64,000 nucleotides of DNA from an uncultured Planctomycetota bacterium (GCA_963849325.1 CAWKHF010000006.1:256001-320000), one strand, 5' to 3'; counted from the stretch's first letter, positions 50,539 through 64,000 are shown. Numbers and translations are program-made. Notes: generated by a model not told the origin, from the sequence alone.

Positions 50539-50628
50539 TGCCGCTACCGCTGGCGGTGAGCACGTCCTGGAGGGTGACGGACAACACGCCGGTGAAGACG
50601 TTCTGGCTCCAACTGGTCGTGCTCGTGC
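50539..50628 (-). pseudogene. isolated remnant of one stalk repeat of the polymorphic toxin
   Basis: GTSTTSWSQNVFTGVLSVTLQDVLTASGSG matches TSTTVWSQNVFTGSLSATIQD of the large protein. Confidence 0.7.
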
Positions 50629-50710
50629 CGAAGTTTCCGATGCGGTGATCCCTGAATCGCGCTCCTCCATCCGCCCCATGACTGCCCGGATGGCATTTTC
50701 GGGAAGGACA
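50629..50710. repeat. ~82-bp cassette-boundary element, copy A (probable IS end)
   Basis: near-identical to 62950-63031, diverged copy at 53043-53125; ends GGATGGCATTTTCGGGAAGGACA. Confidence 0.85.
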
Positions 50711-50774
50711 ACGGTAGACGGCGACCGACCTATCTTACGAAGGAAGCGATTTGCCAGACAGAGCCTAGACTCCT

Positions 50775-51134
50775 CTATTTCCGAGGATGTCGCTCTGCGT
50801 CTATTTCCGACAAGTGACACCCACGTATGAGCCAATCATGTCCGAATGTTAGACCCGACGTTATGCTGGGAAAGACGCCAACCTCGATTCCTGTTTCCGC
50901 GTCGTAAGGGTCTGACGGTCCCGCATAGTACCGTATCTCGCCTGCAATCCGCTGGAGAACAAATCGTCTCGATCCCTTGTCAATTTCAATCCCAGGATCG
51001 TTTGTAATAGTCGTGAAATCAAGACCCTTGCCCCAACACAAATCCACAAAAATCGGGGTTTCGGTCATCTTACACTGAGACGCAAGGAGATCATAGCTAT
51101 GGCCTTGCGCTCGTAGACTTTCAAGGAATGTCAT
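50775..51134 (-). CDS. putative immunity protein for the orphan toxin
   Basis: 119 aa, low GC, starts 10 bp after the toxin stop. Confidence 0.6.
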   Translation of the reverse strand: MTFLESLRAQGHSYDLLASQCKMTETPIFVDLCWGKGLDFTTITNDPGIEIDKGSRRFVLQRIAGEIRYYAGPSDPYDAETGIEVGVFPSITSGLTFGHDWLIRGCHLSEIDAERHPRK

Positions 51135-51143
51135 GCCCGCACC

Positions 51144-53020
51144 TTAGTGAATCCGCTCACCCGTCGAGAGATTGTAAATCGCTCGGGGACCTCCAGGATA
51201 TTCCTCTATGACGATACAGGCGCCTGGAGTAAGAAAGCCTTGTTGCTGTAACGCCTGGCGAATCGCTGGAATATCGCTTACCCTGGGCACAAACCCGGTT
51301 GAGGATGGACCAACGACTACATCCTTTCCTATCATCATGAACCCAAACCTTTGTTGGCCCGTTTGGAGCGGCCCAAGATTGGTCCCTGACAGCGTGAGAT
51401 GGTTTGTAGAACTGCCATAAGTGCCCGCCGTAACTCTACCACCTTCAGGAGTCACTTCCACGACACCGATGAGCTGGCCTTGGCCGAATTGAGCCCGAGC
51501 CTGCGCAAGAGTATGCTGCGTTCCGCCAGGGAGTGTCCTCGTTTGTGAAGCAGGAATTTCAGTGGGAGCTGGACCTTTGACTCTGCCAGCGTTAATCTCA
51601 TTGGGAGCCGGGCCTTTGACTCTGCCAGCGTTAATCTCATTCGGAACTTGTTTTGGAGCAGTTCCCTTTGGAGAAGGACTCGCTGCCTTGGCCACTGCTA
51701 CGCTCGCCGCAAAGGCACCGGCATTCTGGCAGTACTGGGTACTGTCCCCCGTCTTCACCGCATCGATTGCCGAATCGGCCAGCCCGTAGATACCGAGCGT
51801 GCCCGCATCCGTCATCTGCTTGGCGATATATTTGCCACCCTCCGCGGGGCCACGCTTTGAGGCCTCATCCATCCCTTTGAACAACCCGGAACTGGGCTCA
51901 TACTGGTACACACTCGTACCGAACATGGCATTGCTGGCAAGCGATCCTGCCTGCAAGGTTGCACGCGATACGTCGTTGCTGGCCAGCGCCAACTCCAAGG
52001 GAAGCTTGGCGGCCCCGATGGCCATATTCTTCGCTCCCTCGGCCGCGCCCGAACAAGCAGCACAGGGAGCGTCCCACAAATAAAACTTCCAACCCATTCC
52101 TTCAGGGGCTGCATCGGTGAAGGGTTGACCAAACGGTGAGTAATCGAGGTTGCCCGGTCCCGCTCCCGGCGTCGCATTGGAGACGTTGGCGAAGCCTTGC
52201 AGCAGGGAGTAACGGTCCTGTCCGGTCTCGCTCTGACTGAGACTGCCGCTCTTCCAATCGCCACTCTCCTGCAAGCTGTAGCTGTTGCTGCCGACACCAC
52301 TGGGCATGGTAGCGCCGGGACCACTGTCGGTCAAGTTGTAGCTGCCGTTGCCCGACTCCGTGCGCTGGAAGGTCTGGTCCGGCGTGTTGCCCGTCTCGCT
52401 CACCGAGGTCGTCTCACTGCCCTGCAACGTCGCGCTGTAACTGCCGCCCAACGACTGACCCGACTCCGCCATTGCATAACTGTCATCGCCACTCAGGCCA
52501 CGGCTGTAAGCGCCGGTGACGCTGTTGCCGCTCTCCTGACCGCTGCTCGTCGCACTGCCCGACTCCGTCAGACTGAAACTGTCGCTGCCGCCGGCCGTCT
52601 GCGTCATCCCGTAGTTGTCGCTGCTCGTCAACTGCGCCGTGTAACTGCCGGTGAAATTATCCCCCGACTCCTGCCGCGTACTCGTCTGACTGTCGCTCTC
52701 ATTGGTGCCCACGCCGCCAGCACTGTCCTGCAGCGTCGTCGTGCCGCTACTGCTGGTGTTGCGCGTGTAGGCACCCGTGAAGTCGTCGCCCGACTCGGCA
52801 AGCGTGCTGTTCGACTGGCTCGTCTCCGTGTACGACGCTTGCCCCGCCAACGTCGTCGTCGTGTCCTGAATGGTCGTGCTCACATTGTCCGTACCCGAAC
52901 CGCTGTAGCTGCCGGTGTCGTCGTCGCCCGTTTGCTGCCACGACTGCTGCTCACTGCTGGACTTGCTCAGGCTCGACGTGCCCACGCTGTTGGTCGCCGT
53001 CTGGCCCAGGTTGTCCGTGC
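51144..53020 (-). CDS. orphan polymorphic toxin cassette: ~300-aa duplicated stalk end plus a different C-terminal domain
   Basis: 53020-52120 nearly duplicates 56267-55367; sequences diverge after GNLDYSPFG; no native N-terminus. Confidence 0.8.
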
Positions 53021-53042
53021 CGCTCCCCTCACTCCTGCCGCA

Positions 53043-53125
53043 CGAAGAATCCGGTGCTGGGTTCCTTGAGCCACACTCCGCCATCGACTGCGTGACTGCC
53101 AGGATGGCATTTTCGGGAGGGGACA
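53043..53125. repeat. ~82-bp cassette-boundary element, copy B (diverged)
   Basis: aligns along its length with copies A and C; GACTGCCAGGATGGCATTTTCGGGAGGGGACA. Confidence 0.75.
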
Positions 53126-62387: not shown

Positions 62388-62605
62388 GGGGCGTCCTCCC
62401 CGTGCGGTCGTCGCCGCGGAGTGGAGTCGATACCTTCCAGCAATGGATGCGAAGGACTATCATCCGGGCCTGGAGACCGGCGTGTCAAGGGGTAGCTGGG
62501 GGGTAGCTTGCTTTGGACTCATCAGCTTCTCGTCATAGTCCCAGATGACTCCCTGTCCGGTGCCGTCGCCCCGGAAGCGGAGGGTGCCGACGGGCAGGCT
62601 GCGAT

Positions 62606-62812
62606 TTGCTGGATCGCGTGATTGTTTGGAAGAAAGGACACTTGCGCCGGCTTCTCGACGCCTCCCTGGAGTCTTATCATCAAGCGCGTCCCCACATGGG
62701 ATTGGGCCACAATGCTCCGCAGCCGCGTGCGGTAGAGCCACCGGAGCATGGCCGAGTCGTGGCGGAACCGATGGTAGGTGGTCTGCATCACCGTTACCGC
62801 CGCTGCGGCTGA
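62606..62812 (+). mobile_element. C-terminal remnant of an rve/integrase-core IS transposase
   Basis: LDRVIV..GHLRRLL...YHQARPHMGLG..P...GGLHHRYRR. Confidence 0.75.
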
Positions 62813-62949
62813 GTACCCGCATTGAGAGACACCTCACGTTCTTTCGCCGGAACAGCGTTCCCGCTCCGTCTGAAGAGCAAAAACAGACCTTGAATGTACC
62901 TGCTCCCTGCTCGGAAGGCGACGAAGCCGCGTCGATCATCACTCCACCT

Positions 62950-63031
62950 CGAAGGTGCCAGTGCGATGATCCCTGAATCGCGCTCCTCCATCCGCCACAT
63001 GACTGCCCGGATGGCATTTTCGGGAAGGACA
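62950..63031. repeat. ~82-bp element, copy C, downstream of the transposase remnant (probable IS right end)
   Basis: near-identical to 50629-50710; ends in ACA directly against a stalk-gene fragment. Confidence 0.85.
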
Positions 63032-63429
63032 GGTCACCACGGACGAATCGCTGCCGGTCGCGCTCTCCTCGTCGTCGCTCTCCTCGTCGTCGCCCGACTG
63101 CACCGTGGAGCTGCTCAACAGCGTCACGCTGTCGCTGTAGTCCTGGTCCGACACCTGCAACAGCCCGTCCAATTGTCGCTGCCGACGGTCGTCGCGCTCG
63201 AACTGCCGCCAGGGTTGGTCCCCGTCTGGACCACCAAGTCGGTGTTGCTGCCGCTGACGCTGCCGACAAACTCGCCGCTGATGCCGCCGCCGCCGCCCGC
63301 CAACGTGTGGACCGCCAACGTCTCCGTCTGCGTGTACTGGTCGCCGCCCTCCTGACCCGTCGTCGTCACCGTCGTCACGCCCCTGGCCACGCTGCCGCCA
63401 TAGGTGGCGTCGAGGAAGTTGCCGTCCAT
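63032..63429 (-). pseudogene. diverged paralogous fragment of the toxin stalk
   Basis: DGNFLDATYGGSV..TTTGQEGGD.YT.TETL..DYSDSVTL.SS.TVQSGDDEE matches ~59240-59630 of the large gene. Confidence 0.75.
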
Positions 63430-63481
63430 TTGATAGGGACAGGCTCATTTTCCTGCGCAATAATATTCGCACAAAACGCAT

Positions 63482-64000
63482 TTAGCGTGTTGGCGGTCTT
63501 AATGCCAATGCCCGAAGATATTGATTCTCTCGTTCTATGCGAAGTATGTTGACGGGAATCGAGAGAGAAAGAAAGGTAAGACCAACGCCACACAATCCGA
63601 TAAGCCGTCGCCAATAATTAGAACGATAGCCTAAAACCGACTGCACAGTGAGGCTAATAATCTCAACGAGCGAAGCCGAAATGGCACCCATAACGATAGA
63701 GCTGATAACCACCATCAAGACATCTTTCTCTCGGGGAACGGTTGCAACTGATAATAGTATAACACAGAAGGCGATGGAGACGCCGAGCCATGCCAATAAC
63801 CATCCCGTCAAGACCGACAATCTTTCCTCGCGCATAGTCTGAACCGTCCATCTCAGTAGCAGTCCTGCAATTACGCCGGGCAGTAGGGCAAAAAGTGCAA
63901 GATTAATTATATTGTCAACGATTTTATCTAACGTAAGCGGCCCTTCCTTATAAGCAACTACGACACCATCCGGCGATACATATATTTCTCGTATTCGACC
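63482..64000 (-). CDS. low-GC multi-pass membrane protein, 5' truncated by the window (possible immunity protein)
   Basis: frame open from 64000 (GRIREIYVSPDG...LALFALLPGVIAGLLL...MREERLS) with about 4 hydrophobic segments. Confidence 0.55.
   Translation of the reverse strand, partial: GRIREIYVSPDGVVVAYKEGPLTLDKIVDNIINLALFALLPGVIAGLLLRWTVQTMREERLSVLTGWLLAWLGVSIAFCVILLSVATVPREKDVLMVVISSIVMGAISASLVEIISLTVQSVLGYRSNYWRRLIGLCGVGLTFLSLSIPVNILRIERENQYLRALALRPPTR

Follow-up and report, generated by a model that had tools for sequence, protein, structure and literature searches.

What kind of system is built around a giant gene whose conserved, GC-rich body gives way abruptly to a low-GC tip, and which is followed on the same strand by small genes and by a cassette that repeats its end with a different tip? 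This question is raised by positions 50539-64000 of a stretch of DNA from an uncultured Planctomycetota bacterium (the window, 64,000 nucleotides, C6:256001-320000 of an 8.16-Mb, 65% GC genome in 14 contigs; positions are window coordinates unless a contig is named), and we think that the answer is very probably a polymorphic, interbacterial toxin system in which tips are exchanged by way of cassettes. On the minus strand the locus runs, in order, through the giant gene (gene 1), an immunity gene (127 amino acids, aa), an orphan tip (131 aa), an S1 protein, an orphan cassette (cassette 2, 662 aa), a further small gene (119 aa) and a stalk remnant, and every part listed in a preliminary description of this DNA is indeed found on that strand, in that order and at those coordinates. 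Polymorphic toxins are recognised by a conserved region with a sharp switch of tail, C-termini from toxin families, a partner gene downstream and orphan cassettes that share the conserved end. Here these appear as the architecture itself, a sharp junction, tails of many kinds, relatives with toxin domains that are already known, and two toxin–immunity gene pairs that are conserved.

Where, then, does the conserved part end and the exchanged part begin? The body of gene 1 has 63-75% GC and the tip (about 55400-54800, the last ~900 bp) 49-58%, as the preliminary description had it, and the tip follows directly on a pre-toxin module. With the 333 aa before the junction as a phmmer query, a database of 1.84 billion representatives gave 178 matches at E ≤ 1e-3, and all our counts of junctions, tails and domains refer to the 150 relatives listed of these. 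The consensus end of the module is ...ETGxDRYxLLxxFxNVSNxxxGxxPG(N/H)(L/M)(D/N)(F/Y)xP(F/V)GxPFxD, and the same junction is reached by 130 of the 150 relatives, 103 of them ending in Asp and 86 being followed by Pro. Behind it, 106 tails measure 80 aa or more, and these form 68 single-linkage groups, the largest with 33 tails, so the C-termini of the homologues, which the preliminary description had singled out for inspection, are highly variable and not invariant. The window's own genome holds six copies of the GNLDYxPF junction, followed by unrelated tails of 48-328 aa, each different and two of them short (48 and 87 aa), and tandem three-gene arrays with different tails occur in the genomes G413 (362, 407 and 166 aa) and G444 (197, 17 and 108 aa).

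What stands behind the junction in the relatives is in some cases familiar. In 30 of the 150 the Pfam domain PT-HINT lies behind the module, followed by HNH-type or other toxin domains, and other tails carry GH-E, AHH (two proteins), WHH, EndoU, Gln_deamidase_2 or DUF2380, with weaker matches to Deam_C, Peptidase_M91 and PT-TG; NCBIfam adds a match to a SitA6 polymorphic-toxin family, and one distant relative is labelled by NCBI as 'polymorphic toxin-type HINT domain-containing protein [Pirellulales bacterium]'. Zero Pfam matches were obtained for 113 of the 150. The module and the stalk, for their part, are covered by no Pfam or NCBIfam model, either in the window proteins or in the 150 relatives. 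In G413 and G444 the relatives' stalk is matched repeatedly by the module profile, which shows the module to be the final, conserved portion of the stalk.

Further copies of this arrangement lie outside the window. Past its end, contig C6 bears another cassette and a second giant gene, whose first 227 residues are 99.6% identical to those of gene 1, and a third locus on contig C4 consists of an uninterrupted 3260-aa gene and a cassette. This paralogue (L003:200-9982; G000:C4:443200-452982) ends in the same module and an 87-aa tail, and its body differs, being made of ~170-aa repeats (...SWSYSGSGTYTDANGTSGVSFFVPGSASA...); the module is therefore common to distinct types of stalk. A search of the order detected it in 24 of 267 genomes and 21 of 96 genera, all in a single family (23 of 251 besides the window's genome, with 0 of 15 in the other family), and in none of 10 further members of the window's genus. 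In a sample of 401 genomes from the phylum, searched with the single sequence and the profile and with 3-5 candidates scored per genome, the module was found only in the window's genome.

What are the tips, and what would protect the producer from them? The last 130 aa of tip 1, the tail of gene 1, have 37 relatives of similar length (53-92% identity), several of which are labelled 'filamentous hemagglutinin', and the motif IDNTR is conserved across these homologues. The toxin domain was modelled by AlphaFold2 with a predicted local distance difference test score (pLDDT) of 93.6, and the best Foldseek matches of the model are all ParB-like (PadC, ParB, Noc and sulfiredoxin; probability 1.00, best E 1.8e-4). 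In its accessible text, the survey of Zhang et al. (2012, PMC3482391) describes Tox-ParBL1 toxins with the motifs [ST] and [NT][RT][RT] and with immunity types that include Imm-SUKH and Imm44. Tip 1 resembles these in its predicted ParB/sulfiredoxin fold, in the N-T-R within IDNTR and in its SUKH-type partner, and it differs in that no Pfam model matches it; it is thus a candidate Tox-ParBL1 toxin, which it fits in fold, motif and partner taken together. Sequence searches with tips 1 and 2 against solved structures gave nothing credible, and a profile match of tip 1 to designer PPR repeats was regarded as a spurious summation over repeats. Within tip 1 the linker is separated from the toxin domain by a 24-nucleotide (nt) tandem repeat at 54828-54944, which codes for (AEAKTL/TQ)n.

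The gene behind tip 1 has relatives at 32 loci in many phyla, of which 15 show a tip-1-like domain immediately upstream in the same orientation; its carriers there include two RHS proteins (in Lewinella and Anaeromyxobacter) and a PT-TG protein (in Clostridium). Within this family 8 of 26 members match SUKH_5 (best E 7.8e-4) and 5 of 26 match SMI1_KNR4. In three runs the model of tip 1 in complex with this protein obtained a score of 0.74, and the best of three controls obtained 0.00. The mark thus passed is attained by 116 of 157 solved complexes and by 2 of 215 mismatches, counts that are a rough guide here, own alignments having been used. The runs agree in at least 82% of contacts, the pLDDT of the partner is at least 83, and the modelled interface joins the conserved toxin motifs SQxTAGG, DN(TR) and RF/NQRP to the invariant DNDD loop of the immunity protein. 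The model thus supports binding of the two, with the proviso that such a pass may reflect likeness to a solved complex. The immunity-like gene that had been noticed after gene 1 can accordingly be read as coding for a divergent SUKH protein.

The second pair is more unusual. Homologues of the orphan tip form the extreme C-terminus of longer proteins, in one case right after PT-HINT, and the tip was found in 6 of the 267 genomes of the order. Directly downstream of it in five of five other genomes lies an open reading frame (ORF) with S1 domains and 34-40% identity to the window's S1 protein, and because the pair is kept in all five, this protein is most likely, to judge by gene order, the immunity partner of the orphan tip and not a bystander. 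The partner genes (loci L074-L078, with a tandem duplicate in L074) point to an OB-fold immunity protein, and the S1/OB fold is not among the immunity families in the accessible portions of PMC3482391.

How would tips be exchanged? The segment 52129-53024 of cassette 2 matches 55376-56271 of gene 1 over 896 bp at 91.9% identity, and the match breaks off ~6 codons short of where the conserved junction ends, after which the two tips differ; this is the repeat of about 900 bp with a different tip that had been described before. An 82-nt element with sharp boundaries is present in four copies in the genome, three of them at the 5' edges of cassette 2, the 50.6-kb stalk fragment and the C4 cassette, and the fourth just upstream of gene 1. 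Positions 62579-62809 code for the last 74 residues of an rve-type transposase (tblastn, 73% identity), and in two other members of the genus (L061 and L062) a similar element follows an rve-type transposase gene at a distance of ~140 bp. With the 82-nt copies at their edges and a transposase remnant nearby, the orphan cassettes have the look of 3' ends of genes that remained after insertion sequences had inserted and caused deletions. Both toxin loci are strewn with pieces of a single rve-type transposase family and of its 82-nt end element (62579-63031 and G000:C4:436235-436739). The 82-nt element was also considered as a structured RNA and rejected, its folding z-scores being -0.06 to 1.2 and no Rfam match at E ≤ 1 occurring in 50000-64000. 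The stalk remnants that the preliminary description had reported are likewise real and, with the other features, are collected in the table.

Table. Features of the toxin locus and of related cassettes (window coordinates unless a contig is named)
Feature	Position	Strand	Basis or remark
Giant toxin gene 1 (leader, Calx-beta, stalk, pre-toxin module, tip 1)	54445-62387	-	ORFs, GC3 frame tracking
RLELLALEER motif, variant of genome-wide LExLE(D/E)Rxx(P/L)	62208-62237	-	translation, motif census
Calx-beta domain	60457-60792	-	Pfam PF03160, E 1.5e-22, ORF residues 558-669
Stalk, Ser/Thr/Asp-rich beta-hairpin repeats	56401-59650	-	period 138 nt (46 aa) or 276 nt; repeat families D1-D5, D10
Pre-toxin module, 348 aa, ends ...DRYSLMQGF...GPGNLDYSPFGMPFRDD	55357-56400	-	database relatives, junction alignment, AlphaFold2
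Tip 1, low-GC tail: linker, (AEAKTL)n repeat, toxin domain	54448-55356	-	genome-unique, composition, repeat family D8
Tip 1 toxin domain, predicted ParB/sulfiredoxin fold, Tox-ParBL1-like, IDNTR motif	54448-54837	-	homologues, AlphaFold2, Foldseek
Immunity gene 1, 127 aa, divergent SUKH superfamily	54048-54431	-	gene-neighbour pairing, SUKH_5 matches, complex model
Orphan toxin tip, 131 aa, without stalk part	53640-54035	-	homologues C-terminal on longer proteins
S1 protein, two S1 domains	53149-53610	-	Pfam S1, E 1.8e-14
Orphan cassette 2, 662 aa	51144-53132	-	module part 52129-53024; tip 2 51147-52128
Immunity-like gene 2, 119 aa	50775-51134	-	assigned by position only
Stalk remnant	63029-63428	-	79% identity over 404 bp to 59230-59630; upstream of insertion-sequence remnant
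Stalk remnant	50547-50630	-	78-80% identity to stalk units
Insertion-sequence remnant upstream of gene 1	62579-63031	+	rve/DDE-type transposase end 62579-62809; 82-nt element 62950-63031
82-nt insertion-sequence-end remnant	53043-53124	.	5' edge of cassette 2
82-nt insertion-sequence-end remnant	50629-50710	.	before 50.6-kb stalk fragment
Further cassette	C6:320773-322864		frame with junction and tip C6:320773-321924
Further cassette	C4:439906-442032		

Is this a new class of toxin system, as the preliminary description proposed? Here we would be more cautious: the polymorphic toxin locus, its immunity genes and its orphan cassettes all stand, and 'new class' is too strong, because 30 of the 150 relatives carry the known PT-HINT behind the same module and one of them has been named accordingly by NCBI. 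What is new is the hairpin-repeat stalk with its pre-toxin module, found in one planctomycete family; the principle is already known. The repeat types named in the accessible text of PMC3482391 (RHS, FilH, ALF, tail-fibre, ankyrin, beta-propeller, Sel1, TPR and PPR) do not include the present stalk, and planctomycetes appear in its phyletic patterns with RHS, HINT and other parts, again with no such stalk named. The expected absences are also borne out, since RHS, haemagglutinin, LXG, PAAR and Hint gave no Pfam or NCBIfam match in any window protein. The trafficking domains of MafB, of LXG toxins (type VII secretion) and of PAAR/VgrG toxins (type VI secretion) were equally missing, by Pfam and NCBIfam, from every piece of the giant gene. 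Toxins exported by the Sec route with PT-HINT are close to those 30 relatives, one of them so named, and differ from the window's three module-bearing proteins, which are without HINT in Pfam.

The most instructive comparison is perhaps that with CdiA. Both have a giant filament, presumably at the surface in the present case, an immunity gene downstream and orphan cassettes, as well as a large predicted beta-sheet (FHA-2 in CdiA) straight before the pre-toxin boundary and a variable C-terminus in two parts, entry or linker region and toxin, and the tip 1 domain is itself found on proteins named 'filamentous hemagglutinin'. The differences are that gene 1 has no Pfam match to a TPS domain or to FHA repeats, that no CdiB-like product is encoded among the 12 flanking ORFs scanned, that the boundary here reads PFGxPFxD(P) without a VENN motif, and that the stalk, to go by the module model, would consist of 46-aa hairpin repeats and not of a beta-helix. 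In the accessible text of PMC13625785, FHA-2 of CdiA is predicted to be a large beta-sheet before the pre-toxin and toxin parts, and it associates with the target outer membrane, and by analogy FHA-2 may be the nearest functional counterpart of the module.

Several observations weigh against the toxin-system reading and should be set out together. The window's own junctions read D-D-P-P or D-A-A-P and not D-P; the C-terminal domain of tip 2 has 8 homologues, all unnamed; and immunity-like gene 2 has no family match in Pfam or NCBIfam and no informative relatives. No known secretion partner is encoded among the 12 flanking ORFs, which extend from an 859-aa ORF below the array to ~16 kb past the window end and which gave as matches only WD40, a weak glycosyltransferase and DUF6165, and a classical hydrophobic signal peptide, judged by eye, is absent at either toxin N-terminus. 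Gene 1 changes frame five times in 8 kb, in a locus strewn with insertion-sequence remnants. Finally, the best 50 rows of a VIA-align search with the module are outer-membrane barrels (root-mean-square deviation, rmsd, 4-7 Å), and the module has the composition Ser 24%, Thr 17%, Gly 13%, without a hydrophobic belt or face.

This last point deserves thought, as it bears on what the module is. From 47 sequences AlphaFold2 modelled it with a pLDDT of 94 and a predicted template modelling (TM) score of 0.85, as a set of 15 antiparallel strands that for the most part span 17-20 residues. Foldseek with this model returned nothing at E ≤ 1e-3, and outer-membrane barrels lead its list at a TM score of ~0.25. 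The extreme polarity of the module argues against a conventional membrane barrel, and we set aside the idea of an outer-membrane beta-barrel for want of a hydrophobic, lipid-facing belt. Because its strands are rich in Ser, Thr and Gly and have no hydrophobic face, we read the modelled module as a soluble, barrel-curved sheet without a close solved relative.

Might it, instead, be a very divergent toxin of the RHS/YD type, in which degenerate YD hairpins form a shell that encloses the toxin, with an RHS-like cleavage at the C-terminus? The two have in common a body of hairpin repeats, a core whose end is sharply conserved and gives way to a variable toxin, the presence of orphan cassettes and an association with insertion sequences, and true RHS proteins are among the carriers of the same ParB-like toxin with its SUKH partner. 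The pattern aromatic-x-hydrophobic...(E/D)(S/T)G recurs in the beta-hairpin repeats here, teneurin and RHS shells do turn up far down the Foldseek list, and when the module was aligned to an RHS protein with hhalign the sole paired segment was the junction, LDYSPFGMPFRDD against IEYDPFGL..FIDPY, which in that protein lies just before its toxin. However, this alignment covers 14 columns with a probability of 0.23 and E 0.26, and is suggestive, not significant; the Foldseek probability for teneurins is 0.01-0.02; and no RHS or Tc shell is among the best 50 rows of VIA-align. RHS_repeat is found neither on the module at E ≤ 10 nor on any of the 150 relatives at E ≤ 0.001, and PAAR, VgrG and DUF6531 parts are lacking. 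The module is predicted to be a long-strand sheet and is probably not a YD shell, the strands of YD hairpins being about half as long as those of the module, and relatives appear to release their toxins by PT-HINT. We therefore consider an RHS origin very unlikely, and the family search of the stalk that had been proposed earlier, which found no RHS, FHA, LXG or PAAR in Pfam or NCBIfam, points the same way, as does that low hhalign probability.

What of the broken reading frame? Gene 1 opens with an ATG at 62387, closes with a stop at 54445 and runs through frames 2>1>0>1>2>0 in the present assembly, with breaks near 61850, 61500, 57850, 57390 and 56960, the three within the stalk all falling soon after an ...ATIQD repeat position. 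If the frameshifts and scars were real, gene 1 would be a pseudogene in a decaying relic of which the immunity genes alone remained useful, against the toxins of neighbours, and to the frame changes could be added the insertion-sequence remnants at four cassette borders, the short tails (48 and 87 aa) on two copies and the absence of the module from the other genomes of the genus. However, each segment of gene 1 has a GC content at third codon positions (GC3) of ~0.9 and zero in-frame stops in its proper frame, the C4 copy is an uninterrupted 3260-aa ORF, and in the same assembly the essential genes rpoB and rpoC are split as well, into four and at least three frame pieces (G000:C1:334967-343005). 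Because these two are broken too, the frameshifts in gene 1 are probably assembly errors; most likely indel errors are general in this assembly and the five breaks need no biological cause, and frequent indels would also fit a completeness of 84.7% despite only 14 contigs. We would leave a decaying relic only a slim chance. That the giant gene encodes simply an adhesin or surface-layer protein, with C-termini varied for surface variation or anchoring and with unrelated small genes downstream, is hardly credible, for although gene 1 has a Calx-beta domain, relatives have Big_3_5, Big_9 and cadherin-like domains and 113 of the 150 representatives have tails of no recognisable family, relatives' tails also bear nuclease, deamidase, HINT and pre-toxin domains, the ParB-fold tip and its SUKH partner are conserved across phyla and types of chassis, the complex model supports their binding, and the layout of orphan cassettes fits toxin exchange.

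How, then, might a polymorphic toxin system of this kind work? The giant protein can be read as a basic LExLE(D/E)R leader, Ig-like adhesion domains (Calx-beta), a long stalk, the pre-toxin module, and a linker with the toxin tail. It would presumably be exported to the cell surface and deliver its toxin in a contact-dependent manner, and the small gene next to each tail would supply the protein that keeps this tail harmless to the producer. The module, a predicted 15-strand sheet like FHA-2 of CdiA, may bring the toxin to or through the target outer membrane, and the toxin could be set free at the conserved Asp(-Pro) boundary or, in relatives equipped with PT-HINT, by that domain. New tips would be installed by homologous recombination between the module of the full-length gene and the same module on promoterless orphan cassettes, which themselves would be born when insertion sequences cut earlier copies of the gene. 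A bolder version is also conceivable, in which the module is a new delivery device, a polar 15-strand sheet or barrel at the end of a hairpin-repeat fibre, which upon contact inserts beside or into the target outer membrane and lets the C-terminal toxin through, independently of type V, VI and VII systems, with export by a planctomycete-specific LExLE(D/E)R signal and with S1/OB-fold immunity alongside; we consider this, on balance, unlikely.

The leader merits a closer look. A census of LExLE(D/E)Rxx(P/L) gave 58 six-frame matches in the genome, 47 of them with at least 200 aa in frame downstream, and 42 of these 47 lie no more than 120 aa from the start of the ORF; a variant form is present in both C6 giant genes and in the C4 gene. 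The motif is therefore a candidate sorting signal, and the planctomycete export motif of the preliminary description is real and specific to N-termini in this genome, with the role in export being inferred only. The large ORFs with the motif near their start, at least 42, include a cluster of ~585-1040 aa ORFs at C5:133-160 kb. The motif was not found in the G413 and G444 loci, where the N-termini are not resolved, and no motif strings of this N-terminus were found in the literature. Of the two adhesion domains previously suggested for gene 1, Calx-beta is firmly supported by Pfam (E 1.5e-22), and the PKD-like domain has zero Pfam matches at E ≤ 0.01.

Why should this matter? Knowledge of how bacteria deliver toxins to one another comes mainly from Proteobacteria, Bacteroidota and Firmicutes, and the locus suggests a concrete function for some of the giant genes of planctomycetes. 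A 2025 review of the Planctomycetota (PMC12673574) mentions giant genes, and the words 'toxin' and 'contact-dependent' do not occur in its accessible text; a literature search on planctomycete polymorphic toxins gave nothing specific beyond this review and PMC3482391. In addition, an unnamed pre-toxin module, modelled with high confidence and with a sharp boundary, furnishes a handle for harvesting new toxin and immunity domains, given the 113 of 150 relatives without a Pfam match, and two toxin–immunity pairs, one of them with an unusual S1-fold partner, are ready to be tested. It also invites one to ask by what route a protein that shows neither a classical signal peptide nor a known secretion partner would reach its target.

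Some smaller observations concern the remaining tips. The C-terminal domain of tip 2 was not found in the 266 other genomes of the order, and in the ESM Atlas tip 2 met only unnamed clusters (best score 0.83). Many tails, among them those of tip 2, P0196, P0197 and several representatives, begin straight after the junction with a partly hydrophobic stretch rich in Trp and Gly (for instance ...IGAGHAIWDIGAV..., ...GIYGLADSAIDAVKTGD...), which has no significant Pfam match and is like a pre-toxin TG or entry region. Lastly, the end of the window (63482-64000, continuing to C6:320273) holds an ORF whose small product has several hydrophobic segments and which is situated between the C6:320773-322864 cassette and a stalk remnant, and this protein may be the immunity protein for that cassette's short tip.

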